Positions 8,229-54,100 of a stretch of 64,000 bases of DNA are shown in pieces. The translations under genes and the position numbers were made by a program. How positions within the stretch are numbered: position 1 is the stretch's first letter; every line of letters starts with the position of its first letter. The notes beneath the pieces were generated by a model, which saw nothing but the letters and a program-made list of their open reading frames with translations, had not been told where the DNA came from and did not search any database. The stretch is from assembly GCA_965112735.1 (NCBI GenBank), contig OZ218963.1, positions 1,550,001 through 1,614,000 of the forward strand. The letters run 5' to 3'. The stretch comes from Phaeosaccion multiseriatum (lineage: Eukaryota; Protista; Ochrophyta, other classes).

Positions 8229-8399
8229 GGGGCCACCAGCAGGATCACATCATGGATTGGATCACACCGAGGATTGAGAACATGATGCAGATCATGGATC
8301 ACGATCCAACCTTGATCCAACTGTGATCCAGTTCTAATCCATTAAATGTAACTGATCCTACTTTTTTTGTGGCTGTGTTCGATTATTCAAAGTGGATCG

Positions 8400-11109: not shown

Positions 11110-11408
11110 TGTTGTGATAAGTATCGCCATTTGTGACTGAGCACTATATCGACGTACAATATCGATGTGGATATCGATATTCATGTATGGCCACGGCCAT
11201 CACTTCCTTGAACGCATCTCTCAGTAGGTATTATTAATACACGAGTTGACACTACTCTAGCTTGTCCCTGTCATCGTAGAGGAGATATCGCAATACGACA
11301 GCTGTCGCGACACTTCACAGCTAGCTGGTTCTACGTAGTCGGCGACGGCACACAGGCGAGTTTTGGTCGGATAACTCAAGTGAGAGAGAAGGAGTCCTTT
11401 CGTTAGCC

Positions 11409-12239: not shown

Positions 12240-12255
12240 TCGGTTCAAACAGCAA

Positions 12256-14547: not shown

Positions 14548-14583
14548 CATGCTGTCTCCTCCATACTAGGCCCACTCTTTCTG

Positions 14584-16191: not shown

Positions 16192-16519
16192 TTTTAGTTC
16201 AGTAGTTTTAGTATGAGGTTTTCAGGACTTTGTCTCGGGGGGGTTTTAGGACAAGTCAGGTGTTTCCTCATTGTGTTTGTGGTAGAGTGTCAGCTATCAA
16301 GAGAGATAGTGATTCAGTCATAGGAGGGTGTTGTGATAAGTATCGCCATTTGTGACTGAGCACTATATCGACGTACAATATCGATGTGGATATCGATATT
16401 CATGTATGGCCACGGCCATCACTTCCTTGAACGCATCTCTCAGTAGGTATTATTAATACACGAGTTGACACTACTCTAGCTTGTCCCTGTCATCGTAGAG
16501 GAGATATCGCAATACGCTC

Positions 16520-17625: not shown

Positions 17626-17872
17626 AGGTCGCTTTTACAACCCGTTTTGACACAATTGCTGGTGAGGATATCCGAAAAACAAAGGAAGGAGAGGAAGGAA
17701 GGACAGGACCGGGAAGGCAGGAGGCACACAGGCCACCTAGGACCAGACTCGGAGGCGGTAGGCAGTACCAGCACACGGCCTACAGGGGACAGTGGCTGCC
17801 ACAGCGGTGGGCAGAGGATAGGCAGCAGGCAGGGAGCGAACAGCAGAAGCGGCACAGCAGTGTGGAGGTGAC

Positions 17873-25500: not shown

Positions 25501-25702
25501 TCCCTGCACGGTGGTGACGGACCACCAACCCTTGCTGTGGCTGGCGACGCACAAGGACACCAACTCCAAGCTCTTTCGGTGGTATGAACGGCTCTCTGCT
25601 CATCATCTCAAGTTTGTCCACAAACCGGGGCGGGAGCTTGTGGTGCCTGACTGCTTGTCACGCGACCCCTTGCCAGTGACTGAGTGGTGTGATTGCCAGT
25701 GA
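19544..25702 (+). CDS. pol: Gypsy pol part 1: poly-Glu linker, protease, dUTPase-like fold remnant, poly-Gly linker, RT, RNase H
   Basis: LVDTGAT, DIMSGY, MPQGAKNAP, CFVDDI, TDAS, TELELLA, TDHQPL, PDCLSR. The frame is open directly from the gag stop. Confidence 0.95.
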   Translation, partial: RCPAATESVAAGPGALGRGGVVTASSRAVDTGVREGNKSHNVTPHRACVSSSFSLLATLPPSPRGEIHTVDSGRPVDSGRGWVDGDGVEQKAEKAKEEEEEAAVWGAVGGMPLWRQRACREPRLPNHMLRIGRRKQQALTLRATADAARARAAAFLRCAVGLPAAGGAVEGAAVGGLGAAPLTLVAVEAEAEAEAVEVEEEEEEEEEEEEEEEEAEEAEEAADAVTAAAQEGPAEEEEEEEEEEEEEEEEEEEEEEEEEEEEEEEEAEEEDEEEEAAEEAADAVTAEAQEGPAEEEEEEAEEEEEEAAAEAADAVTAAAQEGPAEAQAEEQPMSAALEAAEEEGEEEEKEEEEEAEEAEAEEAAAAVTAEAPEGQEEAQAEEKPMSEGLEAEEEAKEAKEEPTETVADNGNEARQTGAAADAAIAAALFGAELQAEVEAAAQGPACGLVGATAEAQRRVWRARQVVVMRRWREGHVFRCPASAAAGVPRGVMALPLGVPPWEQSLRDPSLLREWVWAAQEWVISDAQTATQAAQRWAAECAAAHVRVLTWAAETFVIPPAGRRVPSGVGVGPSAAPAGSSALRVDDCDDFDALLAEHVTLLPECSGALPALSPTAKACRAAALLAPAAESVERECVSGCSLSAEREPCEVCVQRARVEMAALSVTDDTGAAYLRREARRKQIEMTLAIKQTGRTGVSVNPRGHTVSVVLQSALQLREQLPRAPVSLTVQALVDTGATHTCASRATFDRGVAAGVFQVRDLAEERVAVRYATTQAATSASLGRVWVQIALTPTCQPVVAMWVVEHLARPLILGQDVLTMVGAVTDHKVHQLYVHPTEASSPSSEPRSEVDDTIAVAAVSLGECQVLATEALRLAPGGKAVLVLEADGGVAGGRLSVELGAHGQLQAQQEALWWLNHEQVLVSRAACVVGATQQWSIGIHNQHNETIVVVPGQAVGVGTYLLAEEDRRAAVEVALCEPAPLVAPCTPAGGLRPLPRRWARWGASRAVVGGEERGGGVGGGSAAAAGGGGGGDGGGGGGGGGGGGGGVGGGSEGEGGGGGGGDGGGGEGGGGGGNDGAPRQAWLEAVALRERWGRETVASDLVDGPEDVFRPVPLGPVALGAVRAPVVQAVRPVTRESGKHRPCRPARLGLGRRLRVARRHVSLSVEGPFTAGPSILARHARAVAAAAAAGGGGGGAAVAGGGAGGGGGGGGGGDGGGGGGGGGGGGGGGGGGGGGGGGGAAGGGAPSLCVSEAGVAAVDGGPSIGDAGPGGGGGDGGGASGDAGGGGGGGGGGGGGGGGGGGGGGGGGGGGGGGDAGGGAPSLCVSEVGVAAVEGGSSIGDAVTGEVEVVPTTESPQAALHALQDDVTAGQQVEATQGCLQGPTWTIDEHGALTLGGTGEGRQAGTREAAHSLIVREWAPRLAASGQERLRTCLAAAEVGAVTALLLLRPHVQQTQGGLEGVDDVVVAQWLEQLLSMWSSHSLLKQAGVETELNAALQLFLTIRRLLWQCRALRAEVGGLAGGECVQQQRRRAQAAVARAKFYQAQLPQHMHAMTIGDEGWTEAQRWGLVVVLKQRVAAFCVDGSDDGRTDSGRFGFPLLDPKQPPIRSAARRYPPPVRRGIEIELNKMLAAEIIRPSTAAWATPLMAVLKTDEHGNTKCHEDGTPIVRMTCDLSQLNDACRTEAPAMPVVDDLLAEMQGSTVFSVMDIMSGYFNVPMATTEDEDISTFVCHSGTYAWRVMPQGAKNAPATFVRLMNTVLQGLQAFVACFVDDIAVFSATVDQHIGQLDQVLGRMVQHKLKLAPSKVVLGASQVLFCGHLVDSEGVRADPAKYAAVRALAKPTAQSGNQVRQVRRFVGMLSYFRKFIPAFAMKVRPLNELLRKGVDVRSAWGPRHDAAWEGLIEDLLRSPALAFPHYGSESVFTLSTDASADGLGGVLSQRDAEGVERVVTFISRATTPTEARLGSTELELLAVVWCVRKLSMYICHHPCTVVTDHQPLLWLATHKDTNSKLFRWYERLSAHHLKFVHKPGRELVVPDCLSRDPLPVTEWCDCQ

Positions 25703-28700
25703 CTGAGTGGTGTGATGCGGTGGGAGTGGAGGTGGCGTTGGTGGATGTGGTGGGTGACACCCTCGCGTTAGGGTGGGAGGATCCGGTGGAAGGTGCGGTG
25801 CTGCGGTTTGCTGCCGCGGCGCAGCAGTTGCAAGGGGAGGCGGTGGCGGCTCAGTCAGTGCCTATGGAGGGACTCTCGTCGGTCACGGCGAGACAGCAGG
25901 CGTCGGCAGGTTTGGAGGCGCTGTGCGTGGACAGTGTGGCGGTCGCGGCGCCAGGCGGCTTCGGGTCGGCTCGGTTGCAGCACGTGGAGCAGATGCGGCA
26001 ATGTGGCTGGGCTCCAGTGACCCTGTCCCACATCAACGAGAAGAAACGGGTGATAGAGGAGTGGTCTCAGCTGCCGCTGCTTCTCAGCCACGTGCCAGCA
26101 GCGCGGTGCACGTACATACGCACGGAGGAGCAGGTGTGGGACATGCGAGCGGCACTGCGGGAGGCGACAGTGGTGGCCATGGACTCGGAGTGGGCTATAC
26201 GCACTCCTCCTCGGCCGGCGTCTCTGCTGCAATTGGGTGTTCAGTATAGCGGCGTCGCCAATTCGGAGCGTGATTGTGGGTTCTGGGTGGATTTGGACAG
26301 TTTGAGTGGCAATGGTGGTATGGAGGCGCTGGCGGCGGTGCTGAGTGAGCTGTGGGGCGACGGGGGGATTATGAAGCTGGCGCATCACTGGAGTCACGAC
26401 CAGCGTGCCCTAGGGAAGTGGCCGGCGTTGGCGCCGCATGTGTGGACCATCGCCAACTTGGTCGACACGACGCATCTATTCAAGGAGGTGTGGCCTGAGC
26501 ACTGCCGTCCCATTGGCTTAGCAGACCTGGTTAGTATGTTCCTGCAGCGTTTTATGAGCAAGGAGGAGCAGAAGACGGATTGGACTCAGCGGGAGCTCAC
26601 TGCGGCCCAGCTCAGCTATGCCTTCGACGATGTGGCCGCATTACTACAGTTGCTGCCGAAGATGCGGGCTTGTGCAGTTCCGGTGCCGTCTGCGATGGAA
26701 GTGAGCGCGGTGGATAGCGGGGTGGCGGGTGTGACGCGTGCTGAGATGCGCGCAGGACAGTTCGTCTCTGCCGGGGTGGGGTATTGGGCCGATCGGGAGC
26801 AGGCCAGTCCACTCTTCATTTTCTCAGCGACCGCTAAGTCAGTGGAGATGATCGACCTGATCCTTCTTTCTTACCGACATCCCCAGTGGACCTGGACGGA
26901 GCTCATGGACGCAGTGGAGCAGTTCAGGGCGCGCTATCGGCCGGCCGCGGCGCGGAGGCGTGGCAAGCTGTCACTACCTCGAGCGGTTATGATTGAGAAG
27001 ACGTGGAGTGCCACCGCCGCAGATACGGGCGGCTACTACACCATGGTGACCCCCACAGAGGCCCAGCAGCAGTGGCAAACCCAAGGTGTGGCGTGGGACA
27101 TCCCTGCCGCCGTCGAGGCCGCGGGCGTGGTGGGTGCATCGACGGTGGAGGCGGAGCGCACACCGACCGCGGCCACAGCAGACGCCACAGCCGGCGGCGG
27201 TGACGGTGCGGGTGGTGCAGGCGGCGGAGGAGGGGTTGAAGGCGGCGGCAGCGGCGGAGGCGGAGGTGGAGGAGGAGGAGGAGGAGGAGGAGGAGGAGGA
27301 GGAGGAGGCGGAGGAGGAGGAGGAGGAGGCGGCGGACTCACAGTTGGCGGCTCGGCCACGGGGGTGGAGGGACGAGAGGCTGGAGCGACTCCAGCGGCTG
27401 CGGCGAGCGAGGCAGCAGCGCTGGCAGACGTGGAGGCCGCAAGGCAGGCTGCTACGCGGCAATTTGGGTGGTCCCTTCCTGGTGTTCCCCCGGCAGTGGG
27501 TGAGCAGTCGTGCGCAGCCCGCATATTGCATGGGGCTCGCACTTACGAGCCCGCGTGGTGGGTGAAGGCGCAGCAGCAGGACCCTGAGCTGGAGGGGTGG
27601 CGTCAGAAGGTCTTGACAGCCTCCCCGGGTGAGGGGGTGTTCGATGCGGGCGGGGGGGAGTTCTCTCTCGATGGCGATGGAGTCCTTCGTCGCAAGTGGG
27701 CCCCCGGGGGCCGACGGTGGCGAGTAGAGCGAACGAGGTTGCAGCTTTGTGTCCCCAAGGCGCTCAGGCCTGCACTACTGCATGCAACTCACGGCGATGC
27801 AGTCTCAGGCGGACACCACGGGCCCGGGCGGATGCTGGACGCGCTGCAGGAGCGCGTGTGGTGGCCCTCCATGAACGGGCACGCGTTGTACTGGGCCCGT
27901 TCGTGTCTTGCGTGCCAGACACGCAAGACCCTACGGAGGCGCCCTCCGCAGGTTCCGCTCTCGTCCATCTCATCGGAGGCCGTGAATGGGCCATGGGCGG
28001 TTATGGGTGCTGACGTGGCGGGACCATTCCCCATGGCCATGGGGGGGGAGGAGTACATTTTGGTGTTTCAAGATTGGTTCACAAAATGGACGGTGGTGGT
28101 ACCATTGTGCGCCAAGGACTATACTGCGGAGGGCATTGCTAGGGCATTCGTGCGGCATGTAGTGACGGTGCTGGGGGCGCCCAAGGTGCTGGTCAGTGAC
28201 CAAGGATCGCAATTCACGAGCACGCTCAAGGCCGATGTGCTGCGCGTGCTCCAGACATCACAAGTCTTCACTACGCCGATGCATCAGCAAGCCAATGGAC
28301 AAGTGGAGCGCTTCATGGCCACGATGAAGGACATGCTGGCGACGACGGTGGAGGCCCAGATGCAGCAGTGGCCTGAGTATGTTCCCGCGCTCACGTACGC
28401 GTACAACTGCAGAGCTCACAAGACCACAGGCCTCTCCCCGTACTATACGCTCTTTGGGCGACACCCCCCGATCCCGCTTCAAGCGATGCTGTCTGCCCTC
28501 GAGGAGGACGGCTCGTTCGAGACGCCTTCGGCATGGGTGCATGAGCTGAGGGCGCGGATGGCAGCGGCGACGCAGGTGGTGACAGGCAGGCGCGAGGAGT
28601 ACCGCAGCAGACTACAGCTCAAGAACCGTGAGCGTCGCTGGCCAGCGCCGATGCCTCCTGGCACCAAGGTGTGGTTGTACCGTCCAGGGGGGGCGGCGCA

Positions 28701-29415
28701 GGAGGAGGGAGAGGCCATGGAGGAGCAGAAGGCACTGACGCTCAAGGCGCTGAGTCATGCTTGGGACGGACCGTTCCAAGTCCTGGCTTGGCCCACACAG
28801 CAGGCCTTTCAGGCGCGACATGGTGGGGTTCTCAACGCTGAGCACTACGCGGTGATGCGCCGGAGCACGGTGTATCTGGATGTGCCTAGGGTCAGAGGCG
28901 GGGGAGTGGAGTTCAAGCAAGGGGCGTACCATCGGGACCTCACCAAGCTGTTCGTTGATGGGGTGAGTGGCCAGCCGGAAGGGCTACCAGATGGGTTCGC
29001 TCGATACCACATCCGTTACTGCTCAGCCCACTGGGGTACTAGTGCACTGCAGGAGAAGCGTAGCGTGACCGATGACGAGGTTGGGATAGGGCGGGCGCCC
29101 GAGCTGGCGCGGATAGTGAAGATGAGGTGGCGTAAGGCCACAGGGCAGCCCCTACGGCGTGAGTACTGTGTACGTTGGGCTGTACGGGAGGGTGGCAGTT
29201 ATCAGACGTGGGAGTGGGACGATTGGCTCTTGCGGCGCGGGGAGAGGGCGGCAATAGAGGCATTCGAGGACTCTTTGGCGCCAGGGGCGTTGGACCCGAG
29301 CGTGCAGCGCAAGCGTGGGCAGCGGTCTAAACGAGAGCGCACCGTGCGCGCCATGTTGCACGAGAAGTGGGGGATGGGCATCGCTGCGGAGACGGCGCAA
29401 CATTTGGGGTTCTAG
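25693..29415 (+). CDS. pol: Gypsy pol part 2: DEDDy 3'-5' exonuclease, integrase (H2C2, DDE, GPF), chromodomain
   Basis: MDSEW…HHWSHD…SKEEQKTDWTQRELTAAQLSYAFDD, GGHHG…CLAC, GADVAGP, SDQGSQF, NGQVER, WDGPF, REYCVRW…TWE. Separated from part 1 only by a 23-bp tandem duplication at 25671-25716. Confidence 0.95.
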   Translation: MPVTEWCDAVGVEVALVDVVGDTLALGWEDPVEGAVLRFAAAAQQLQGEAVAAQSVPMEGLSSVTARQQASAGLEALCVDSVAVAAPGGFGSARLQHVEQMRQCGWAPVTLSHINEKKRVIEEWSQLPLLLSHVPAARCTYIRTEEQVWDMRAALREATVVAMDSEWAIRTPPRPASLLQLGVQYSGVANSERDCGFWVDLDSLSGNGGMEALAAVLSELWGDGGIMKLAHHWSHDQRALGKWPALAPHVWTIANLVDTTHLFKEVWPEHCRPIGLADLVSMFLQRFMSKEEQKTDWTQRELTAAQLSYAFDDVAALLQLLPKMRACAVPVPSAMEVSAVDSGVAGVTRAEMRAGQFVSAGVGYWADREQASPLFIFSATAKSVEMIDLILLSYRHPQWTWTELMDAVEQFRARYRPAAARRRGKLSLPRAVMIEKTWSATAADTGGYYTMVTPTEAQQQWQTQGVAWDIPAAVEAAGVVGASTVEAERTPTAATADATAGGGDGAGGAGGGGGVEGGGSGGGGGGGGGGGGGGGGGGGGGGGGGGGGLTVGGSATGVEGREAGATPAAAASEAAALADVEAARQAATRQFGWSLPGVPPAVGEQSCAARILHGARTYEPAWWVKAQQQDPELEGWRQKVLTASPGEGVFDAGGGEFSLDGDGVLRRKWAPGGRRWRVERTRLQLCVPKALRPALLHATHGDAVSGGHHGPGRMLDALQERVWWPSMNGHALYWARSCLACQTRKTLRRRPPQVPLSSISSEAVNGPWAVMGADVAGPFPMAMGGEEYILVFQDWFTKWTVVVPLCAKDYTAEGIARAFVRHVVTVLGAPKVLVSDQGSQFTSTLKADVLRVLQTSQVFTTPMHQQANGQVERFMATMKDMLATTVEAQMQQWPEYVPALTYAYNCRAHKTTGLSPYYTLFGRHPPIPLQAMLSALEEDGSFETPSAWVHELRARMAAATQVVTGRREEYRSRLQLKNRERRWPAPMPPGTKVWLYRPGGAAQEEGEAMEEQKALTLKALSHAWDGPFQVLAWPTQQAFQARHGGVLNAEHYAVMRRSTVYLDVPRVRGGGVEFKQGAYHRDLTKLFVDGVSGQPEGLPDGFARYHIRYCSAHWGTSALQEKRSVTDDEVGIGRAPELARIVKMRWRKATGQPLRREYCVRWAVREGGSYQTWEWDDWLLRRGERAAIEAFEDSLAPGALDPSVQRKRGQRSKRERTVRAMLHEKWGMGIAAETAQHLGF

Positions 29416-29712: not shown

Positions 29713-29929
29713 TGGAAGGCCTCAGATGAGATGGGCCATAAGTCAATGGCCCAGGCCCAGGCAGACGCGGTGAGAACGGGTGGCGTGGCTCTCACTATCC
29801 TATGTGCGAAGGTGGTCGTTTAGGACTAGCATGCGATAAGTTAATAGAGGCAAGGCTGGCTGCTAGGCTGGCTTTGGGGTTGCTGTTACCTTGTCCGTGT
29901 GTCTAGTTCTATCCTATCTGTAGGCGACA
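29713..29929 (+). mobile_element. 5'-clipped solo LTR related to both the Gypsy 3' LTR and the solo LTR at 1472-1696
   Basis: Start matches 29482-29519. The body matches the reverse complement of 1500-1672. Ends GACA. Confidence 0.75.
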
Positions 29930-31499: not shown

Positions 31500-32092
31500 T
31501 TCTGTCTGTCTCCATCGGCCAGCCTGTCTGGCTTTCTGGCTGTGGGTCTCTTCTGTCTGCCTGTCTGTGTCTCTGCCTGTCTCTCTCTCCCTCTGTCTGT
31601 CTGTCCATCTCTCTGTATTGTGTGTCTGTCTGTCCCTCTGTCTGTCTCTCTGTCCCTCTGTCTGTCTGTCCATTTCTCTGTATTGTGTGTCTGTCTGTCT
31701 CTCTGTCTGTCCCTCTGTCTGTCTGTTGTATTGTGTGTCTGTCTGTCCCTCTGTCTGTCTGTCCATTTCTCTGTATTGTGTGTCTGTCTGTCTCTCTGTC
31801 TGTCCCTCTGTCTGTCTGTCCATCTGTCTGTCTCTCTGTCCCTCTGTCTGTCTGTCCATCTCTCTGTATTGTGTGTCTGTCTCTCTGTCTGTCTCTCTGT
31901 CTGTCCCTCTGTCTGTCTGTCCATCTCTCTGTCTGTCTGTCTGTCCATCTCTCTGTATTGTGTGTCTGTCTGTCTCTCTGTCTGTCCCTCTGTCTGTCTG
32001 TCCATCTCTCTGTATTGTGTGTCTGTCTGTCTCTCTGTCTGTCCCTCTGTCTGTCTGTCTGTCTGTCCATCTCTCTGTCTCTCTGTCCCTCT
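31500..32092. repeat. Complex (TCTG)n-based micro/minisatellite
   Basis: Reiterated TCTG, CCATCTCTCTGTATTGTGTG and TGTCCCTC blocks. Confidence 0.95.
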
Positions 32093-33554
32093 TGTGGAGT
32101 CGTGCACTGAAAGGATGACTACCAATAGCAATAGACCCTACCTGCACATAGCAGGAGGTCAGTCGCTATCCACCAGAGGTGGAACACTCGTGAGAAAACG
32201 AAAGGACGAGAGATGAAGTAATATTTTAGGAGATGGAAAGAACTAAAAGGAAACTGAAACTGAACGAAGAAACTGAAACTATGAACTGACGACATTTGTG
32301 AGCATACCTCCACAGTCCCCCCTTTGAAAGCATGTGTGCATACGCAGACATGATAAGGAAAGAGAAAGAGATGAACACAAATAGGAGAGAAGGAAGTAAG
32401 GAAAAGAGGGAATCCACACAGACTGGCTACACCGACTTGGGAACAGAACAGATGGAGGGAAAAGCTGCCTCACACAAGGGGGAGGGAAAAAGCGGCCACA
32501 CAAACAGTCCAGAAACACCAGAGAGTAGAGAGAATTAGCCCTAGCTACACCGACTTGGGAACAGAACAGATGGAGGGAAAAGCTGCCTCACACAAGGGGG
32601 AGGGAAAAAGCGGCCTCACAAACAGTCTAGAAACACCAGAGGGTAGGGAGAATTATTTCAGGGCACATTGGTACTCAGAAGGTATAGGAAAGAGTCCGAG
32701 GGAAACAGAAGAAGATTAGAAGTGAGGAGAGTAACGGTCACGGAGAAAGGTGACAGTACGTTCCGACGCCTGACGCGGAGGGCCGGTGGCGCCGTCTTTG
32801 ATGTGCTGCGTCGCTGCTGCCTTACCAAGGGCCTCTTGGATATTAATGCCGAGCTCCTTCAGGGTGGCGCGGCCCACGGTAACCAACTTGGTCATGTCGT
32901 TATCCGTGATGGCATAGCTGATCTTGGGCACCAAGAGAGGGCCCTGGAAGGTGTGAAGAATGAGGTCCAAAGGTGGAGTACGCCGCTTGTAGGAAAACAT
33001 GTTGGGGCTTGAGGCCGGCAGCGAGGCCTCCGCTGATTGCAGAAGCTGTGCCTTCTACCCATTCGTCCGCACTCTCGTTGTAGACCACGGCGAGCTGCCC
33101 ACATTTATCCAGCGCCGAAAAGAGCTGCACAATCTGCTGCTGGCATCGATCCACTGCGGCCGCTCTCTGACTGGGATCGGCCAAAAAAGGCTGGATGTAG
33201 ACCTCGATGCTGGAAGAGCCTACCGCGGGTGGTGTACAGCCTACCACCGGGTGTTGTAGTGGCGAGACGGACATTGGTCGCCGCTGAAATTGGAAAGTGT
33301 ATGAAATGTACTATCCGGTAATAACTAGTTATTGTGGAGTCGTGCACTGAAAGGATGACTACCAATAGCAATAGACCCTACCTGCACATAGCAGGAGGTC
33401 AGTCGCTATCCACCAGAGGTGGAACACTCGTGAGAAAACGAAAGGACGAGAGATGAAGTAATATTTTAGGAGATGGAAAGAACTAAAAGGAAACTGAAAC
33501 TGAACGAAGAAACTGAAACTATGAACTGACGACATTTGTGAGCATACCTCCACA
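32093..33554 (-). mobile_element. Internally deleted non-autonomous LTR element (family B), identical 222-bp LTRs
   Basis: LTRs 32093-32314 and 33333-33554, PPT AAAGGGGGA before the 3' LTR, gag start (33274) joined to a protease-like tail (VGRATLKELGINI), ~118-bp tandem duplication at 32426-32655. No TSD. Confidence 0.9.
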
Positions 33555-33970
33555 GGGTGCTGGTATCATCGTCGTCGTCGTCGTGGTCGTTGTCATCTTC
33601 ATGGCCTTCACCCTCCCCGCCCGCGGGACGTTTCGCCCCCACATCAACACCACCCCCCGCCACGCTCACAACCTTCGCCGCCAGCTGGCGCTCGTTGTTC
33701 TGTTCCTCGTGTTGCCTCTTCTTCTGGTTCTTCTTGGCTGCTCTAGCATCTCCGCCCTTCAGCGACTGCATGTATTCCAAAGATGTCAGGAACTCCTGTT
33801 TCTCGCTGTCTTCGAGCGAGGAATCTCGGACCAAGGTCATGGCGTCTTCGGTGGCTTCAGCAGACTTCAGCATCGTGTTCATTCTGTTCTGCATGTTCTT
33901 TGCTGAGATTTCCTGAGTGTATCCGAGAGGGATGGAGAGAGGAGGGGATGGGGCGCGGGGTGGGGGGAAA

Positions 33971-36454: not shown

Positions 36455-36754
36455 TGTTAGAAGTCGTACTTTTGCTAGACTGATACCTGCCCTCTGAATT
36501 CAGACCGGGAGGTATCAGTCTAGCAAAAGTACGACTTCTAACAAGGCTAGTTGTGAGTTCGAACCTTAGCTGTCGCTTGTGAAAAAGCGTATTTTTCGGC
36601 GAAAACTGTTACCAGCTTGCTGGCCCATGATGCTGATTCTCAGACTGCGAGTTACTTCTCTCCACTATGTGCGGTGGGGGGGGGGGGTTCGTCTTCTAGC
36701 AACGGTCTTGTTAGAAGTCGTACTTTTGCTAGACTGATACCTGCCCTCTGAATT
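36455..36754. mobile_element. P1 element: full 89-bp palindrome, 165-bp internal segment, half palindrome
   Basis: P 36455-36543, X 36544-36708, half P from 36709 ending at the GAATT symmetry centre. Confidence 0.9.
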
Positions 36755-37439
36755 TTCGAATCCTCCCTGAAGTACTCGTGCGAGAGCGTCGCGGCCTCCT
36801 TCTGCCGCCGCCGTGGCTGTCTCGAACTCGCCTTCTTCCCTACATGCCGACCAGCAACCCCCTCTGCTGGCTGCTTTGCCACCACTGCTCCTTCCGCTGC
36901 GGCCCTCATGCCGCTGGACCCGACTCCACTGCTGCCCCTCGGCGGATGCGCTCTGTCGCGTGATGCCGCTGCCGCCCCTGCACCGTCTCCTCCCCTCCCG
37001 CGCCTCTCATCTCCTCCCGCAGAATATCTCCTCCTCGTCCCCTGAGCCTTGCTTGTTCCGTCCGCCCCCCTTCTTCCTTCTCCACCACTACCACTGCAAT
37101 TGCTCGAGACAGATCCGCCGTCCCCCCCTCCTGCGCAGTCTTCTCCTCCGCGACCACCAGTGCGTCCTCCGCTGCCCCCTCCTAAGCGGCGGTGGGCAAG
37201 CGCGTGATGGTGGGGGCTTCCTCCAGTGCCACTGTCCCCCCCCCCGACGTCGTCGAGCGGGTATGGCTGTGTCTCCTGGGCGCCCCCACCTGTGCCCTCC
37301 CTCCCTGACCTGCGCCTGCCGCAGGAGCGCTGTGCCGTCGGTTGGCTCCTCCTCCGCCTCCTCCTCCACTCGCTCCACCCACCCGCTTTTCCCTGAAGTA
37401 GTAGAGTGCCCTCTCTGGACGGCACATCCCGCAGCTCCA

Positions 37440-40320
37440 GCGAGTCGCTTGCGGGTGTGCCATCTCCGGAAGCACGCCTCCTCTCCTTTGGAGTTAGAGA
37501 CGCAGAGGTACACTCGACATGTGGGACAGCGATACCAAGACCGTTGTTCTTGGCAGTACTGGCTGGCAACGAGGACTCTGCTTGGGCACGCCGTCCGCCC
37601 CCGCCCTGTGCGACATGCTCTGCGGGATGTGGTCGAGGGAGCGGTTGAGTCTGAATGCACAGCCTTCTCCGCCCTCGTCGAAGTACGGTATCCTGTACCT
37701 CGCAGGGGGGGCACAGATGCGCGAGTCCCGCGGCGCCCTTCCGGCCGAGCGGCCCTCCTTCCTCGAGCTGCTGTTATCCTCCTCATTGACTGCTGACTGA
37801 GCAACACCCTGCTGCCTACCCCCTGCCTTCCCGTCCTCTGGACTTGGCGTGCCTTCCTGAGCTTCCTCCAACAGCTGGAACCCCGCGGCGTAGGCGAAGT
37901 CCGCCAGGCTGCAGACTCTGTTGAGCTGACGGCGGTGTCCATTCATCCCACGGTATTGGCCTTTTTGGAGATGCTCAGCGCCGACCTTACGCATGCGGAA
38001 GGCGAGGAAGGCGTTGGTGCTGAGGCTCTGCAGTGTCGAAAGCACCACTCTCTGCTGCCACGTTGCGCGTTGGTTCTCCTTCGTTATCACTTGACGCTAT
38101 TGCGTGTGGCCGTCCACCCCCCCCCTTTGTCCGGGAGTACACAAGACTTCTTGTACGCCGTACGCTCGAACTCGCCAACCAAGCTCGTAAGATCGCGTGC
38201 GCCTACCCAGGCGCCCTGCTTGGACACCGCCAGACGAAAGGAAGGGTGAAGAGAGGAGGAGGGGGAGAGGAGTGTGGGTGTTGGGCGCGTGGTTGGGGCG
38301 GTGGACGGCAGCAGGCACGGACTGGGTGTAAAGGAAGTCCCAACAGCGGATGCGGACAAGTCGGAGTGTTAGAAGTCGTACTTTTGCTAGACTGATACCT
38401 GCCCTCTGAATTCAGACCGGGAGGTATCAGTCTAGCAAAAGTACGACTTCTAACAAGACCGTTGCTAGAAGACGAACCCCCCCCCCCCACCGCACATAGT
38501 GGAGAGAAGTAACTCGCAGTCTGAGAATCAGCATCATGGGCCAGCAAGCTGGTAACAGTTTTCGCCGAAAAATACGCTTTTTCACAAGCGACAGCTAAGG
38601 TTCGAACTCACAACTAGCCTTGTTAGAAGTCGTACTTTTGCTAGACTGATACCTGCCCTCTGAATAAAATAATAAATAAATATTATTATTTTATTCAGAG
38701 GGCAGGTATCAGTCTAGCAAAAGTACGACTTCTAACAAGGCTAGTTGTGAGTTCGAACCTTAGCTGTCGCTTGTGAAAAAGCGTATTTTTCGGCGAAAAC
38801 TGTTACCAGCTTGCTGGCCCATGATGCTGATTCTCAGACTGCGAGTTACTTCTCTCCACTATGTGCGGTGGGGGGGGGGGGTTCGTCTTCTAGCAACGGT
38901 CTTGTTAGAAGTCGTACTTTTGCTAGACTGATACCTCCCGGTCTGAATTCAGAGGGCAGGTATCAGTCTAGCAAAAGTACGACTTCTAACAGGAGGAAAC
39001 ACTGACTACGGCTGTTCCACTACAACCTCCCACGCGCACCATCCTTCCTACTCACCTGATGGTCCTGCAGCGGCATGGGAGAGTACGGCAGGAGGTACCC
39101 CATGATCTCATTGAATCGGTCCACTGTAAGGGGCGTCAGGCCCAAGCGCTCCATTATGTCCACGTCCATCTTGAGTGACTTGCTGCTCGTAGACGTAATC
39201 AGGAACATCCCCATCCACTGCTCCATCTCCTTTGTCGTCACGTCCGCCCTTTCCTTCGGCCCCTCGCCCGTCCTCCCCCCTGCTGCCTCCGAGTCGTTTA
39301 AGTGAATACTTTCGTTCGCCCACTCCCTCAGGAGACGCACCGCATCGCCGACAAAGAAGCGAATAGCGTCCGCCTCCGAGGATGGATAAATTCTTTGCCC
39401 GCATGTAAATCCTGAGTTTGTTCACGACACTGGCAGAGACCAACCTATACCTCTCTTCGATGAAGTCTTCCCCAACACTTTCCCCCTGCTGGAGCTGCAG
39501 ATTGAATTTCGTGCCAGCACGGCCAGGCTTCACGAGTCTTTTCCATCCATGCGCCGGGCCCTTCTCCTCTGCCCAACCATCGGCCAGCCCTTGCCTCCGC
39601 GTCGCTCCTCGCCCTCGCCCAGCTGCTGCCACTCCACCTCCTCTGCCTCGTCCTCCTCGGCCTCTTCCTCTGCTCGATCCGGGGCCTTGTAACCCTCCGG
39701 CGAAGACTGGGCCATTGGTCCTTAAGCCCCCATTCGGTTGACCACTTCCTGCCTCCCGTTCTGTGCTCATGTTCACACCACCTCCTCCTCCTCTTCCCTT
39801 CCCTCCTGCGCCTCTACTACTTCCCGCCAAATTCGCGACGCTAGCAGGCGCCGCAGATGGTGCGATACCAGTCGCACTGCCACTTGCACTGTCCTGCCTA
39901 AGGTGATGGCCAGACAGAGGCTGCAGTGTGGCGCTCCAGTTCTCCTTGTCTGTGAGCTGCATTCCCGTATCAGCACCAGAGTCAAAGAACCGTGGGCCGC
40001 CTGCTGCCGAGGCCGCCCCCCCGCCGAGTTGAGCTGAGACTGGTGGTGCGGCTCCTTCTTTCCCCGCCATCTTCGTCGACGTACTCGCTGTCATAGTACC
40101 GTCTACTTTGGGGTTAGCTGCACACGCCGACACACTCATTCTTCTCTTGCTCTGGTCTCCCCCCTGTCCTGGTTGCTGCGGTTCTGCTGACCCACTATCG
40201 GCCACATTTCCATCCTTAAACCTGGAATTCTCCTTCCGTTTCCTCTGTCCCCTCCTTATGTGTGACGGCGAAGGCTCCTGAGCCATCTTGCGCTGCTGTG
40301 TGCCCGTCTGCATGGCATTT
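37440..40320 (-). pseudogene. piggyBac-type transposase pseudogene with intron (39055-38216); most of the catalytic core is missing
   Basis: VTTKEMEQWMGMFL…DRFNEIM, KGGVD-like segment near 38110-38130, WQQRVVL…NAFLAF, C-terminal Cys-rich domain RSWYRCPTCRVYLC…CFRRWH. Several frameshifts. Confidence 0.75.
38367..38991. mobile_element. Head-to-head P1 dimer forming a 625-bp palindrome, TSD GGAG
   Basis: P 38367-38455, inverted X 38456-38620, central P with AT filler 38621-38737, X 38738-38902, P 38903-38991. GGAG at 38363-38366 and 38992-38995. Confidence 0.92.
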
Positions 40321-40754
40321 GCCGACCTCTCCGTGAAGACGCGGGAAGGAGCTATGCCCGGAGCGGAACGAGCGTATGTGCTACAATCGGTGTCTTCACC
40401 AACCGAAGCTCTCGCAGAAGTTACAGAGTGATCTTGACTACCTTCTGTAAAGAGCTGGAGTGTTGATACGTCTGCAACAAGGAGAGAGATGCCCTGAAAC
40501 AAGAGGCAAAAAAAGGCGCTAAGACCCACTTTAGTGGGTCTTAAAATTAATTTTCCCGAAAGTCGATGACCTCTAAAACCCACTTGGGGAGGTTTTCGCG
40601 GTTTAGGGATATCGCATCGATTTTCTGATCTAAATCGATGCGATTGTGGAAGTGGCCATAAGCGGTAGAGGAGACGAAATGCGTATCATTTTTTTTCCTC
40701 GCCAACACAAGCCAGGCGGGATGGGATGAGGAAGAGCGAGAAGCTTACTGTCGA

Positions 40755-42413
40755 ATGCACGACGGGACAGCGATGGCGCGGGGAGAAGCAGATGGAGGAG
40801 GAGACACACTCCCACCGTCGGCAGCACCAGCCCCAGCACCAGCACCAGCAGCACCAGCAGCAGCACCAGCGGGGGGGGTTGCGTTCCGAGCGTCTCACGT
40901 CGATCACCCCGAGGAGCCTCGCCAGATCATCGCCATGGTGTGCATGGTGGGGGTGGTGGCGGGAGTGGGCCTACGACGAGAGAGCTCCGATCCTCGCGAC
41001 AATGCTAGGGCCGCCTTGCTTGGGGGCATGGTGATTTACCTCACACACTCCTTCCTGCAGCTGCGTGACAGTGTGTTTGTGAGGCCGCATCCCGGGTTCT
41101 GGAGAGTGGTGCACGGTGCGGGAACCATGTACCTTGTGCTGCTGGGTGCGGCCCTGTTCCTCAGCAGAGACAACGCCGTCAACATGGTGGACATTTTGTT
41201 CTCTTCGGAGAAGCCTTCGCTTGCTGCTGCTCCTGCTGCTGCTGCTGCCGCCCAGGTGCCGTCCAATCATCCGGTTCAGATGAAGTGCGAGCTGACATGG
41301 CAGCACCTGTGGGGCCAGCTGACGGAGGTGTGGTTCTTTGCGCATGTGTCCGGCTGGTGGGGCAAAATGTGCATCTTCCGGGACTGGAAAATCTGCTGGG
41401 TACTGTCCATTGGCTTTGAGATTTTGGAGCTATCAATGGGATGGATGGTGCCCCAGTTTAAAGAGTGCTGGTGGGACTCGCTCTTCGTGGACCTCCTGGG
41501 CGCCAACCTCATTGGAATGGTCCTCGGCACATACACCCTCCGCTTTCTGGAGAACCGTAACTACGACTTCGCCGGACATCGGCCGAGGAACGGAGGAGGT
41601 ACCAGAGTGCAACGGGCGCTAGTACGCTTCAGCCCCTTCAGCTGGAACAAGTGGGAGTGGGAGGTGTTCTCGTCCCCCAAGCGCTTTATGCAGATTGTCA
41701 TGCTGGTGTCGGTGGTGCTCATGACGGAGCTCAATGCCTTTATGCTTCTCAATGCCCTCGACATTCCCAAGAGCAGCATTTTCCACAAGGCTCGGCTATG
41801 CCTCTTGGCCCTTGTGGGGTCGCTAGGCACCGCTGAATTTTACGAATACATCACCAAACCCGCAAACCAAAGGATTGGGCCCAACATGTGGCTCATCAGC
41901 GCCCTCATGCAGCTCGAGATTCTGGTGTGGGTGAAATTCATGCCCTCCCAAATCCTCTCCCAGAACAGCCCCATGGCCGTCAAAGGCCCCCTGCTTCTCA
42001 CCATGTCCCTCTTTTGCATGTGGGCGCTGCTCTTTTTCACCATGAACAAGCCTTCGACAGTGAGCGGGGGGAGTGGGTTGTGCACCACAGCTGGAAGCAG
42101 CAATAGTGGTAGCGATGGCAGTAGAGGGAGGGAGGGCAGCGGTTGCACCAACGGATGTAGAGGAGGCACGCAGGGGATGGAGAACGTGGACAGCGCTGTC
42201 TCGCTACAGCAACCGCAGCAGCAGGAGCAGGAGCAGGAGCAGGCCGAACGGCAGCGCAAGGACTGGGAGGGTGGGCCGGCGGCCTCGGTTGGGGTGGTGG
42301 AGGCTTTGAAGCACCTCAACACCGTTGACCTGCTGAAATGGCTGGGACTGGACTTGCTCTTTTTTGCGTCCTTTCTCCCTCTCGGCTGGCTCGTCAAGCA
42401 GTACTACTACTGA
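40755..42413 (+). CDS. PSS: Phosphatidylserine synthase, base-exchange (PTDSS) type; intronless
   Basis: RPHPGFWRVVHG, AHVSGWWGK, SIGFEILEL, FKECWWDSLFVDLLGANLIG and TELNAF motifs with multiple TM segments. Confidence 0.95.
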   Translation: MHDGTAMARGEADGGGDTLPPSAAPAPAPAPAAPAAAPAGGVAFRASHVDHPEEPRQIIAMVCMVGVVAGVGLRRESSDPRDNARAALLGGMVIYLTHSFLQLRDSVFVRPHPGFWRVVHGAGTMYLVLLGAALFLSRDNAVNMVDILFSSEKPSLAAAPAAAAAAQVPSNHPVQMKCELTWQHLWGQLTEVWFFAHVSGWWGKMCIFRDWKICWVLSIGFEILELSMGWMVPQFKECWWDSLFVDLLGANLIGMVLGTYTLRFLENRNYDFAGHRPRNGGGTRVQRALVRFSPFSWNKWEWEVFSSPKRFMQIVMLVSVVLMTELNAFMLLNALDIPKSSIFHKARLCLLALVGSLGTAEFYEYITKPANQRIGPNMWLISALMQLEILVWVKFMPSQILSQNSPMAVKGPLLLTMSLFCMWALLFFTMNKPSTVSGGSGLCTTAGSSNSGSDGSRGREGSGCTNGCRGGTQGMENVDSAVSLQQPQQQEQEQEQAERQRKDWEGGPAASVGVVEALKHLNTVDLLKWLGLDLLFFASFLPLGWLVKQYYY

Positions 42414-48190: not shown

Positions 48191-51100
48191 TCAGTACTTG
48201 GGCCATAGGCCTGCGCTGAGGTCTCCAACGAGTTTCCGGAACACCGCAGTACTCCCGCCGTTGCCGTGCAGCGCTGCCGGGTGACTGTTCGTGAGCTTGC
48301 TATGCACCTGCCCAGCCTCCGGCCCCACCGTAAAGTGTTCGTACGCGACCTCATGCAAGGTGTGGAAGATGATGCCCTCCCCGTCCAGCACGATCCGCCG
48401 TCGGAGCGAACGGTTTCGCAGGTAGAAGCGCGTAAACCAGCGTTGGTCATCGAGGTTGAGGGGGTCCGCGCCCCATCGGCTGTGGTGTTGCTCAATGTCT
48501 TGCTGGATCTCATCGAGCATGGCCTTGACCGCACCTACCGTGCCGATATATGTGCCTGAGGGGGCGAGGTGGGAATGGGGTTGAGTGGAGTAAGGTTGAG
48601 GATGGATTACATTGACATACAGAATTAACCAAAGAATGTGTGGTGGGGCAAGGGCGTCACAGAGGGGATAAAAGTGGATTGAGCCCAGAGCCGCGCTGTA
48701 GGGGATGGCGTGGGGAGCAGAGCAGAGCATATGGCGTACGACACAAATGGCACAAGCCCGACAGAAGTTTGTTTGTTGGTCCCCTTTTCTTTCTCACAGG
48801 GAGAGCTCCTCGCTAATACGATTTTACTAACCTGAGTTGAGGTACGGTAAGGAGGGCTGCTGCCCCTGACCCGACCCGTACGGATAGAGCGACTGCAAGC
48901 CTCTGTCCGGGGAGCTGGCTACCTCACCGCTGAAGACGAGGGCCGAGCCAAAGCCGCGATACAGGGCCACAACCTCGCGAGCCTCCTCAAGTAGCACCAC
49001 GTCATACGCGTCTGCAAGGGAGGGGGTGGAGAGTGGACGGTGGAGGGTGGAGGGTGGAGGGTGGAGAGTGGAGGGGGGAGATTGGAGGATGGAAGGTGGA
49101 GGGTAGAGGATCGGGGTGGGGGGGTGATATATTATGTACATACACACATATGATTATACATACATGAGGGTGAAGGGAGAAGGGTCAAGGGTGGAGCGTG
49201 GAGGCAGGATCCTCCCTCTACTCTCCACCCTTCATCCTCTACCGTCCACCTCCTCCCTCCACTCCCCGCCCTTCATCCTCTACCCTCCACCTCCTCCCTC
49301 CGCTCTCCGCCCTTCATCCTGTACCCCCCACCTCCTCCCTCCACTCTCCACCCTTCATCCTCCACCCTCCACCTCCTCCCTCCACTCTCCGCCCTTCATC
49401 CTCTACCCTCCACCTCCTCCCTCCGCTCTCCACTCTTCATCCTCTACCCTCCACCTCCTCCATGCACTCTCCACCCTTCATCCTCTACCCTCCACCTCCT
49501 CCCTCCACTCCCCGCCCTTCATCCTCTACCCTCCGCTCTCCACCCTTCATCCTGTACCCTCCACCTCCTCCCTCCACTCTCCACTCGTCATCCTGTACCC
49601 CCCACCTCCCTCCACTCTCCACCCTTCATCCTCCACCCTCCACCTCCTCCCTCCACTCTCCACCCTTCATCCTCTACCCTCCACCTCCTCCCTCCGCTCT
49701 CCACCCTTCATCCTCTACCCTCCACCTCCTCCCTCCACTCTCCACTCTTCATCCTCTATCCTCCACCTCCTCCCTCCACTCTCCACTCTTCATCCTGTAC
49801 CCCCCACCTCCTCCCTCCACTCTCCACCCTTCATCCTCTACCCTCCACCTCCTCCCTCCACTCTCCACTCTTCATCCAGTACCCCCCACCTCCTCCCTCC
49901 ACTCTCCACCCTTCATTCTCTACCCTCCACCTCCTCCCTCCACTCCCCGCCCTTCATCCTCTACCCTCCACCTCCTCCCTCCACTCTCCACCTTTCATCC
50001 TGTACCTCCTCCCTCCACTCTCCACTCTTCATCCTCTACCCTCCACCTCCTCCCTCCGCTCTCCACCCTTCATCCTCTACCCTCCACCTCCTCCCTCCAC
50101 TCTCCACCCTTCATCCTCTACCCTCCACCTCCTCCCTCCACTCTCCACCCTTCATTCTATATATAAAAATATATACCCTCCACCTCCTCCCTCCACTCTC
50201 CACTCTTCATCCAGTACCCCCCACCTCCTCCCTCCACTCTCCACCCTTCATCCTGTACCCCCCACCTCCTCCCTCCACTCTCCACCCTTCATCCTGTACC
50301 CTCCACCTCCTCCCTCCACTCTCCACCCTTCATCGTCTACCGTCCACCTCCTCCCTCCACTCCCCGCCCTTCATCCTCTACCCTCCACCTCCTCCCTCCA
50401 CTCTCCACCCTTCATCCTGTACCTCCTCCCTCCACTCTCCACCCATCATCCTCTGCCCTCCACCTCCTCCCTCCACTCTCCACCCTTCATCCTGTACCCT
50501 CCACCTCCTCCCTCCACTCTCCACCCTTCATTCTATATATATAAATATATACCCTCCACCTCCTCCCTCCACTCTCCACCCTTCATCCTCTACCCTTCAT
50601 GCTCTACCCTTCATTCTATATATATAAATATATACCCTCCACCTCCTCTCTCCACTCTCCACCCTTCATCCTCTACCCCCCACCTCCTCCCTCCACTCTC
50701 CACCCTTCATCGTCTACCCTCCACCTCCTCCCTCCACTCTCCACCCTTCATCGTCTACCCTCCACCTCCTCCCTCCAATCTCCACCCTTCATCCTCTACC
50801 CCCCACCTCCTCCCTTCACTCTCCACTCTTCATCCTGTACCCTCCACCTCCTCCCTCCACTCTCCACCCTTCATCCTCTACCCTCCACCTCCTCCCTCCA
50901 CTCTCCACTCTTCATCCTGTACCCCCCACCTCCTCCCTCCACTCTCCACCCTTCATCCTCTACCCTCCACCTCCTCCCTCCACTCCCCGCCCTTCATCCT
51001 CTACCCTCCACCTCCTCTCTCCACCCTTCATCCTCTACCCTCCACCTCCTCCCTCCACTCTCCACTCTTCATCCTGTACCCTCCACCTCCTCCCTCCACT

Positions 51101-54100
51101 CTCCACCCTTCATCCTCTACCCTCCACCTCCTCCCTCCACTCTCCACTCTTCATCCTGTACCCTCCACCTCCTCCCTCCACTCTCCACCCTTCATCGTCT
51201 ACCCTCCACCTCCTCCCTCCACTCCCCGCCCTTCATGATCTACCCTCCACCTCCACTCTCTACCCTTCATCCTGTACCCTCCACCTCCTCCCTCCACTCC
51301 CCACCCATCATCCTCTGCCCTCCACCTCTTCCCTCCAGGGTAGAGGAGGCCACCTCCTCTCTCCAGAGGAGAGGATGAAAGGTGGAGAGTGGAGGGAGGA
51401 TGTGGAGGGTACAGGATGAAGGGTGGAGAGTTGAGGGAGGAGGTAGAGGGTACAGATGAAGGGTGGAGAGTGGAGGGTGGAGCGTGGAGGGAGGAGGTGG
51501 AGGGTGAAGGGAGAAGGATGGAGTGGGGAGTGGAGGGTGGAGGCAACAAGGGGTTCGCTCGCTCGCTCGCTCACGCACGCACCCACTCACTCACCAACAA
51601 AGAGCAGAACATGATGGTCAGGTATGTCTTGGAGGTGCTCTGAGAGCCACTTAATCTTCTGCCCAAGCCCGACCCACTTCTCGTCGAGACCCAAGATGAC
51701 GAGCTCATATCCCAGAGTGTAAGCCGACGCCTATACAGTTTCGATTGGAGAGGGGAGCAAAATTCCATTCCACAGGGTGAGGTGATAACATGAGATTAAG
51801 TTCTCCGTTTCCGAGTGCACACACACACCGTACACACACGCACTCACACACAAAACACACACATGACGCACTCATTGAGATGCTCAAGTCGAATCAAATT
51901 TGATACCTGAAGGATCTTCAGCTCCTCTTTGAACTCTGTGGCCACAGTCACCACATGCAAAAGCACATCGTCGTCTCTCTGGTCCTGCTCGTCCCCACCC
52001 CCTGCTGCTGCTGCTGCTGCTGCTGCTACCGCTGTATCATCGACTGCCACGGTCTCCCCCGCTCCCGTACCCGGGCCCGCACAGTCACCGACGCTGTCAC
52101 TGCCCTTCTCAGGGCAGTCTCCGAGATCCTTCCCATATTGAGAAGATGGGGTGAAGGAGGCAAGAGGAAGCGCCAGAGCAGAAGAAGCAGAGCACCAGCA
52201 GAGCACACGACAAGCGAAAGAGAGGGACGCGGGTGGGTGAAAGATCGAAGAGGTGGTATCGAAATAGATGAGGCTTACTCGGGGCCAAGGCACCCTGCCT
52301 TCCTTCCTTCCCTCCCTTGTCCGGAGACCTGGTCGTTGCCCCCCCCCACTACTGAACCACCCTCGAGCTCTGCAAACGTCACAATGCCTCAGCAACAACA
52401 GGCGGTCAAACATCCCCGTCTCCTCTTTGGAGGGGAAGCAGCCGTCCGTCCTCTTGCTCGTGTATACCTCAAAAGCACGCCTCGTTCGCCTACCACCGTC
52501 TGGTGCCATCCCTACCTGCTGCTGCTGCGCCACTGGGACGGCGACCGGCAAGGTCCTGCTCACGACAAAGGCAGCCTCGTCCCGGAGAGTCTTTGCCTCA
52601 AACGCCCCCCCGTCGTGTTTCAGCTCCAACGCTAGCGCCTTATCCTCGAGCTGGTTGCTCAGCAAGTGAGCTGAGATGGCGAAATCGGGGGCCTCCTTCA
52701 GTGTGTGGACGGCGCCAGAGTCGACATTCGCGCACGCACGCACGTTCAAGGGGTGGAGATACACGAGAGCGAGGTGGGTTGTGAGTGGTGTCAAGACGCG
52801 GAGGGAGACGTTGGAATGTGCGCACACAAGACGAAGGAAGGATGTCGTCCATGCGACATGTAAAGAGCGTGTCGAGCCGCAGCATAACAGAATCCGCCCT
52901 GTGATCTACGTATAGTGCATTGGCTTCATCACAGCGTCCACTTTGACTTGATCTGCCTCTTCCTTCCTTCCTTCCTTCCTTCCTCTCTTCCTTCCTGTTC
53001 CTTCCTTTCTTCCGTCCGTCCGTCCTTCCGTTCTTCCCGCTGTATTCCCTCTCTCCCTCCCTTCCTTCCTTCCTTACCTGCACGCAAGACCTAAGGAAGG
53101 CCAATCCACCGGCCTTGATATGCTCGTAATCCTCGATGGGGAAGAGCTTTGTCGCGCGAGACGTCATCCCATCATCCAACACCTATTGGGGGGGGGAAGA
53201 GAGGCGGAGAGCAAACAAGGACAAGCACAATTCAGCAGTGCACGTTAGCTCTACTAGAATGAGGGCGGGGAGGTTGCCTCTCACATTGCTTCCATACGTT
53301 TCATTTCCCCCAGGGAGCGGTCAAGTTTCTGTTACGATGAGGCAGCAGCAGCAGGTGGCACCAGAGAGTGCACATGGCTAAGAATGGAGACACGGTGGGA
53401 TCAAACCCTCCTCCTACCTGCGAGAAGGCCAACTCTGCTTTGTGTGTATAGTTACGGCCCGAGCACAGCCCTCGCAGGTCGAAGAAAGTTCCTGGAGGGT
53501 CACTGTGGGTAAGGACAGTCCTCCGCAGCTCCGTTCTTATCGAGTATGTCTGCGCCAGAGGTGAGGGGGTAGGGAAGAGGGCCCGAAGGGAGGCGAGGGA
53601 GACCGCACAGACGCGGACAGAATCAGCGTGAGGGCAAAGGTGGAGAGGGGAGGCAGTCAGGTTACGTTTGCGGGGGGGGGGGGGCATCCACCCTCTGACT
53701 GTGAAAAGGCTCTCTTAGGCCCTGCGCCCTCTAAGTTCCGACCGAAGCAGCCGCGGATGTTCACTACAATACAGCCCTAGTCAATGTCAATGGCACAGCA
53801 CTCGAGAGTCTTCCAAAACGGTTGACTCCCCCGCCACACAAAAGGACTCCCTCCCTCCTTTCCTCCAGGTCTTCCGGCTGTGAGCCCCGGCCTTGCTCGG
53901 CCCGCCACCCTCCGTCCTGACAACCTCTGTCCTGACACCCCTTGCCACCCCTTGCCACCCCTGCCGGCAGGCGAACAAGGATAAGCGCGCGAGGACTTTG
54001 CGTTGCTTTTGGTCTGCCTGCCTGCCTGCCTGACTGACTGACTGACTGACGGACTGGCTGAGGAGGCCGATGTCTCACCATTTGCACAATTTTCCCCGCC

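Follow-up and report, generated by a model that had tools for sequence, protein, structure and literature searches.

What kind of mobile element is bounded by a palindrome, and should such a repeat be read as a long terminal repeat (LTR), as a terminal inverted repeat (TIR) or as both? The question is raised by a 64-kb stretch of Phaeosaccion multiseriatum DNA (contig OZ218963.1, positions 1,550,001 to 1,614,000; hereafter the window, numbered from its first base), in which an 89-bp unit with TGT...ACA ends, here called P, lies beside a 165-bp segment, X. The original prediction, made from the letters alone, had proposed a candidate undescribed class of transposable element (TE). We find that P is a real, recently mobile, non-coding unit whose mobility is well supported. 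On balance, and with some caution, we favour the view that the P family is a DNA transposon of the composite-like or foldback sort, non-autonomous and with ends of the integrase type, that has been reshaped by palindrome instability. A new TE class is not called for on present evidence.

The predicted architecture of P, with 34-bp perfect arms and a core around GAATTC, was recovered (coordinates of all features are collected in Table 1). The arms extend to 44-45 nt when a variable patch of 4-5 nt is included. The core contains a perfect palindrome of 12 nt around GAATTC, which lies half a base off the centre of P and is flanked by GCCC on one side and by CCGGG on the other. Because the core is asymmetric, the orientation of each P can be read, and P consists of two arms, 'a' and 'b', each of ~45 nt and slightly unlike the other, that meet tail to tail. 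At up to one mismatch, the 34-mer arm occurs 11 times in the window, at four loci, compared with 0.00 occurrences expected from shuffled sequences (0 of 100 shuffles). Folded as single-stranded DNA, P reaches -42.6 kcal/mol (z = -16.6).

X was likewise found as described, a segment of 165 bp without coding capacity, and its three full copies are 100% identical. No Pfam domain was found between P copies. Next to P, X starts with a block that is reminiscent of the T-arm of a transfer RNA (tRNA); it also contains a small hairpin and runs of T5 and G12. By itself, X does not fold notably (z = -0.5). We rejected the possibility that X is a degenerate palindrome, given its self-complementarity (z = 1.3, 0.0 and -0.6 for X1-X3), and its inverted repeat is limited to ~24 nt at the ends.

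The original prediction had placed P-X-P at four loci. The four loci of this family (family 1) exist, but none of them is a full P-X-P with two complete P units. At 36455, P and X are followed by a third arm that stops 2 nt beyond the palindrome centre, with unrelated DNA after it, and no flank repeat was found around this copy. At 38367, two P units, two X copies and two single arms form a 625-bp palindrome, in which 309-nt arms are 100% complementary around an unpaired 7-nt centre (38676-38682); compared with its own reverse complement, the element has mismatches at positions 310-316 only. The solo P at 8568 shows two substitutions and lacks 26 nt of one arm. The fourth locus is an older fragment in which homology to X ends at a T-run. 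The flanks of the four loci are mutually unrelated, and a profile search of the window with nhmmer, using the arm plus the T-arm-like module, returned the known loci alone. The span from 36455 to 38991, previously treated as one feature, instead consists of two separate insertions 1.6 kb apart; a single 2.5-kb element was rejected, as its flanks (GAGC and GGAG) do not match.

The flanks also provided the evidence for mobility. Target-site duplications (TSDs) of 4 bp, CATG and GGAG, had been predicted and were confirmed. Exact 4-bp flank repeats are present in both of the two family-1 copies that keep both ends; by chance, a 4-mer match at such spacing is found at ~0.6% of window positions. At 8568, excision of the 63-bp insert together with one CATG (67 bp) fuses the left open reading frame (ORF), ending in ...LGSVM, to the right frame, starting with AESFCERV..., and excision of the 63-bp insert alone results in a stop codon. 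It had been claimed that removal of this copy restores a hAT reading frame. The restoration of an open frame stands, with 67 bp removed, but its hAT identity is a lead only, because Pfam, applied to the two hAT-like halves separately, found no match on either. For the right half, 28 of the 30 nearest protein-atlas clusters belong to the Dimer_Tnp_hAT set (top score 0.95). The surrounding region (8100-9100) is a degenerate hAT-like remnant with 42-43-bp subrepeats (GGGGCCACCAGCAGGATCACATCATGG...) on either side, and it contains a further palindrome with 21-nt arms at 8184-8228.

Flank repeats of 4 bp were absent from the inner units (none of four in family 1 and none of two in family 2), and the whole 625-bp composite has one. 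Because the repeat lies at the whole composite and none at the inner units, we conclude that the composite moved as one unit. Nested insertion of P units, which had been named as a simple alternative explanation of P-X-P, was rejected on the same ground. We also rejected an 'inside-out' mobile unit (arm'-X-arm, with its ends at the P centres), as both the TSDs and the restoration of the ORF sit at TGT and ACA. Taken together, these results support the predicted non-coding mobile element with TGT...ACA ends, 4-bp TSDs and both solo and X-containing forms. From such ends and TSDs, end chemistry of the retroviral-integrase kind, as had been suggested, is a fair inference.

Relative to the same P core, X has opposite orientations at 36455 and 38367. 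Both orientations occur between the same pair of arms, with the CCGGG-type arm (b') on the left and the GCCC-type arm (a) on the right, and such a flip is what inversion by recombination inside identical 34-bp inverted arms predicts. The core asymmetry shows that, in the TSD-flanked 625-bp element, the two end units are mutually inverted; at the 36455 locus, direct orientation would agree with the partial third arm. All half units stop 1-4 nt from a palindrome centre (at 36754, at 38665 and 38693, at ~2726 and at 4439). The deletion derivatives at 8568, 1190 and 4129 retain 1-9 terminal nt of the lost arm, and internally deleted DNA transposons likewise keep their termini. Palindromes yield inverted duplications centred on themselves, according to the portion of a published study available to us (PMC3315005). 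Breaks at the centre and one-arm deletions are expected marks of unstable palindromes.

The same build recurs in two more families of the window, each present at one locus, with palindromic units of 92-95 bp and interiors of 206-212 bp. Family 2 is a tandem P-X-P-X form with arms of 46 nt, and family 3 is 73-79% identical to it. Since the build is common to three families, it is an architecture that has been maintained, not the outcome of a single rearrangement. In all three, a conserved block lies 4-9 nt inside the ...ACA end and, judged by its sequence, resembles a tRNA T-arm; in family 3, it forms a well-paired T-arm stem followed by an acceptor-like 7-mer. From the palindrome centre to the end of this block the distance is 74-79 nt. 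ARAGORN found 0 tRNA genes in the window, and Rfam gave no tRNA match at the gathering threshold or, in the three regions that were searched this way, at E up to 10. The block may be a promoter, a binding site or a relic. The only Rfam matches at E up to 10 were generic ones of the microRNA (miRNA)-hairpin type, all below threshold, and these are due to the self-complementary hairpin shape.

According to the reading that we favour, P is most likely an end module whose movement depends on a Ginger/IS481EU-like DDE transposase, related to integrases, that acts in trans and is encoded outside the window. Each ~45-nt arm would be a TIR and P two such repeats tail to tail, with a left and a right end in one unit; because one P carries both ends, it could move by itself as a solo. 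Any two arms that face outward would be usable as ends, so that composites (P-X-..., multimers and the 625-bp inverted dimer) could move as single units. The logic would be that of composite-like transposons such as KolobokP, which is built as long terminal direct repeat (LTDR)-interior (INT)-LTDR. Internal variety would come from palindrome instability and not from transposition. X may have flipped by recombination between identical inverted arms, one-arm deletions and breaks 1-4 nt from the palindrome centres may have produced the reduced forms, and the 625-bp element may have arisen via fold-back inverted duplication at its AT-rich turn. Enzyme class, cut-and-paste movement and rearrangement routes are all putative in this scheme.

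Several points weigh against this reading. The material is a single 64-kb window, with family 1 at four loci and families 2 and 3 at one each. No Ginger/IS481EU transposase was found in the window, where integrase domains occur only behind reverse transcriptase (RT) and RNase H in a Gypsy pol. The target preferences given in the accessible part of the Ginger description are CCGG/CCGT for Ginger1 and RTATAY for Ginger2 (PMC2836005), and CATG and GGAG, two sites only, lie off both. Family 2 has no 4-bp flank repeat; instead, a 7-mer, CCACCTG, appears again 5 nt past its right end. With base 4440 counted as its final base, family 3 is flanked by GGTCT on both sides, and it fits a 5-bp TSD only if that single terminal base survived the deletion. 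Such variable TSD lengths fit insertion based on reverse transcription better than a DDE enzyme, and the half units that end 1-4 nt from a palindrome centre could mark the ends of RNA or complementary DNA (cDNA). Moreover, DNA-mediated movement of the P family is itself something that we infer.

Much of this evidence can also be read in terms of a non-autonomous LTR retroelement resembling a terminal-repeat retrotransposon in miniature (TRIM), an explanation that we consider unlikely. P would then be a very short LTR, with one arm as U3, the core as R and the other arm as U5; RNA running from P centre to P centre would be reverse-transcribed, possibly by hairpin self-priming, and integrated by the resident Gypsy integrase. 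The TG...CA ends agree with this, as do the solo units, the tandem P-X-P-X arrangement of family 2 and four half units that stop 1-4 nt from the P centre, where R would lie. The 4-bp TSDs fall within the 3-6 bp of LTR elements in the part of a survey available to us (PMC10045372). The window does include a Gypsy pol that comprises RT, RNase H and integrase; behind its polypurine-like stretch, the sequence from the first TGT onward is TGTTGGAAGG, compared with TGTTAGAAGT for P. Snap-back synthesis would produce perfect arms such as those of 309 nt. However, the end units of the sole TSD-flanked composite are inverted instead of direct, and X is found in both orientations relative to the P core. 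As the original prediction had stated, neither a primer-binding site nor a polypurine tract was found next to P. No primer-binding-site-like start lies there, and the tRNA-like block is sense, not antisense, on both strands; this block has no CCA complement in a comparison made without host tRNA sequences, the window itself containing no tRNA gene. The G12 run lies 23 nt upstream of the next P and does not abut it, and the bases that do abut P are mixed in all three families. The negative ARAGORN and Rfam results also speak against this explanation. The Gypsy element has no recognisable LTR pair within the window, so its ends are not comparable with P. Considering the inverted end units and the lack of a recognisable primer-binding site or polypurine tract, we do not find support for the LTR reading of P. 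A related account would see in the three families a lineage of miniature elements whose 89-95-bp hairpin unit is LTR, TIR and minimal transposon at once; arrays would grow and invert by hairpin-primed fold-back copying and would be integrated in trans by an LTR-retrotransposon integrase, with no dedicated transposase. This account appears quite unlikely to us.

A tRNA-derived retroposon similar to a short interspersed nuclear element (SINE) would start at about the P centre from an internal RNA polymerase III (Pol III) promoter, be inserted by an RT of the long interspersed nuclear element (LINE) type and gain its palindromes by cDNA snap-back at the RNA 5' end. The T-arm-like block inside the ...ACA end of all three families, paired and joined to an acceptor-like 7-mer in family 3, is consistent with such an origin, and the distance of 74-79 nt between centre and block is about the length of a tRNA. 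The loss of homology at the T-run in the old copy (1137-1239) and the longer, imprecise flank repeats of families 2 and 3 point in the same direction. We nevertheless regard this as very unlikely, given that no tRNA model matches any family and that family 1 has TSDs of exactly 4 bp and starts of exactly TGTTA, which random 5' truncation would not give. An A-rich or other recognisable 3' tail is absent, the T5 run 48 nt into family-1 X would halt Pol III well before the next P, and no LINE was seen among the window ORFs of 130 aa or more. P might also be no transposon at all, but a palindromic repeat, unstable and multiplied by local duplication; part of the picture might be owed to misassembly, for example to a palindromic long-read chimera. 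All copies do come from one TE-rich window, and identity is 100% among the three X copies and between the two 309-nt arms. Against this, the palindromes stop exactly at TGT and ACA, where 4-bp direct repeats bound them, one copy lies within an ORF whose frame is restored on removal, the four family-1 loci have unrelated flanks, and diverged copies exist (two substitutions at 8568, ~91% identity at 1137, siblings at 73-79%). These observations make a non-transposon origin extremely unlikely.

The window as a whole is eukaryotic and transposon-rich, and SelO pieces are also among its host genes. The second ORF of the Gypsy pol carries a DNA_pol_A_exo1 domain (E = 4e-15) upstream of H2C2 and rve; to our knowledge, this is not a standard domain of Gypsy pol. 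The first ORF is an open frame of 2052 aa with RT and RNase H confined to its C-terminal end, and its first ~1600 residues are mostly encoded by 9-bp-periodic GGA/GAG repeats with a GC content of up to 0.69. Directly downstream of the Gypsy pol stop lies one copy of a 175-bp repeat (29745-29916); the other, inverted and 80% identical (1498-1673), lies beside the old family-1 fragment. This repeat could be part of an LTR or of another element. Around the Copia/Gypsy cluster, 412-bp inverted repeats (9159-9570 and 33146-33555) are ~95% identical and 24 kb apart, and probably belong, as LTRs, to related elements that point in opposite directions. Part of the right copy is found again at a distance of 1240 bp (32092-32315; 224 bp, 100%). 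Between the Copia gag ORF and the Copia Pol_BBD/pre-integrase ORFs sits a Copia-type element (11110-16516) with identical 188-bp terminal repeats beginning TGTTG; if the terminal repeat is taken to stop two bases short of the BLAST boundary, 5-bp copies of CGCTC appear to flank the element. A long array of 41-bp tandem repeats with strong GC skew occupies 49100-51450, with an inverted block at 51365-51455.

Table 1. Positions of the P families and of neighbouring features in the window
Feature	Positions	Strand	Details
Unit P (family 1)	36455-36543		89 bp: 34-nt arm, 21-nt asymmetric core, 34-nt complementary arm; ends TGTTA...TAACA
Segment X (family 1)	36544-36708	+	165 bp, non-coding
Third arm (half unit)	36709-36754	+	P positions 1-46 at 100%
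P-X-half unit	36455-36754		
625-bp perfect palindrome	38367-38991		order P-X'-arm-AT27-arm'-X-P'
625-bp palindrome, left half	38367-38692		P 38367-38455; inverted X 38456-38620; arm 38621-38665; AT-rich 27 nt 38666-38692
625-bp palindrome, right half	38693-38991		arm' 38693-38737; X 38738-38902; P' 38903-38991
Left TSD of 625-bp element	38363-38366		GGAG
Right TSD of 625-bp element	38992-38995		GGAG
Solo P with flanks	8564-8634		63 nt (8568-8630) plus CATG/CATG
Flank repeats of solo P	8564-8567 / 8631-8634		CATG
Older family-1 fragment	1137-1239	-	53 nt of X (1137-1189, ~91%); 50-nt internally deleted P (1190-1239)
Family 2	2239-2773		build as in family 1; ends TGTTA...TAACA
Family 2, left parts	2239-2637		92-bp perfect palindrome 2239-2330; X2, 212 bp; 95-bp palindrome 2543-2637
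Family 2, right parts	to 2773		88 nt of second X2, same orientation; lone arm 2726-2773
Family 3	4129-4439		ends TGTCA...TGACA; deleted unit 4129-4184; X3 4185-4390; one arm + 4 nt past centre 4391-4439
T-arm-like block copies	36544-36575, 2511-2542, 4360-4390, 1153-1189		
Copia ORFs	9984-17868		gag, integrase and RT
Gypsy pol	19544-29412		RT, RNase H and integrase (Pfam domains)
Gypsy pol, first part	19544-25699	+	RVT_1 and RNase H
Gypsy pol, second part	25693-29412	+	3'-5' exonuclease, H2C2 zinc finger, rve core
Phosphatidylserine synthase	40662-42410		host gene

If the pattern holds genome-wide, the composite-like architecture of KolobokP, an animal element, would be extended to very small, non-coding elements with ends of the integrase type, from a protist- or alga-like genome. 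The same pattern would then offer a compact natural system for the making, flipping and breaking of perfect palindromes in a eukaryotic chromosome. In annotation, such units will confuse callers of LTRs, TIRs and miniature inverted-repeat transposable elements (MITEs) as well as predictors of miRNA hairpins, and an explicit family model would improve the annotation of this genome.

How, then, does the P family compare with known systems? A 24-nt arm word was found at 0 loci in metagenome, viral and prokaryote genome contigs, a gapped two-arm pattern gave 0 in prokaryote genome contigs, and metagenome contigs contained no match to a 29-nt word from X. A literature search, with Repbase, Dfam and paper supplements outside its scope, found no description of the 12-nt P terminus or, judged by titles and the opening lines of abstracts, of such elements. 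TRIMs are small and have TG...CA ends, short TSDs, solo units and tandem arrays. A P-X-P element would measure 343 bp and would share these ends, short TSDs and solo and tandem forms; unlike in TRIMs, no primer-binding site or polypurine tract was found, the end units are inverted, X lies both ways and the repeats are palindromic. Classical foldback elements have long TIRs made of tandem subrepeats and longer TSDs. With foldback elements and hairpin MITEs, the P family shares a short, non-coding and almost wholly self-complementary structure with TSDs, whereas its TIR module, in contrast to classical foldback elements, recurs in alternating orientation around a unique segment of 165-212 bp.

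Repbase classes non-autonomous DNA transposons by termini, TIRs and TSDs; the rule for such a comparison asks for an equal TSD length and for no more than 1 mismatch over terminal positions 1-11. In the accessible portion of their description, Ginger1 and Ginger2 have TGTNR termini, TIRs of 40-270 bp and 4-bp TSDs, with non-autonomous copies that share the ends alone (PMC2836005). These termini are matched by TGTTA in families 1 and 2 and by TGTCA in family 3, and the TIR range by the 44-45-nt arms of family 1 (34 nt perfect) and the 46-nt arms of family 2. The 4-bp TSD is matched by both two-ended copies of family 1 but not by family 2, and family 3 is ambiguous in this respect. IS481EU elements have TGT...ACA termini, TIRs that are mostly <50 bp and, in part, a 4-bp TSD; the available part of the survey reports them only from parabasalids and lists TSDs of 4 bp for Ginger1, 4-5 bp for Ginger2, 6 bp for Polinton and 3-6 bp for LTR elements (PMC10045372). 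Unlike the P family, neither group is described in these portions of the two papers with wholly palindromic end units or P-X-P arrays.

A parallel in build is KolobokP, whose order LTDR-INT-LTDR places direct repeats, each carrying its own TIRs, at both ends. In the part of the KolobokP paper available to us, solo LTDRs with 3-5-bp TSDs and multimers of the form (LTDR-INT)n-LTDR are common, and the authors compare these elements with LTR elements and with bacterial composite transposons (PMC9587614). The solo P at 8568, the P-X-... form at 36455 and the tandem P-X-P-X of family 2 resemble this composite build. According to the same portion, KolobokP LTDRs measure ~450 or 660 bp, have 11-18-bp TIRs and RR...YY termini, are known from animals only and enclose an interior that encodes a Kolobok transposase and a His-Me nuclease (PMC9587614). 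P units, by contrast, are 89-95 bp long and wholly palindromic, with TG...CA ends and a non-coding interior. Membership in KolobokP was rejected, as termini, LTDR length and coding interior all differ from that account. The proposal of an undescribed TE class is not supported by these comparisons, since the ends, TIRs and TSDs of P are the signature of Ginger1/2 and IS481EU and since the duality of LTR and TIR is already published for KolobokP, as far as the available portions of these papers go. It is likely that the P family represents a known general kind of small DNA transposon with an unusual palindromic, composite-like build.

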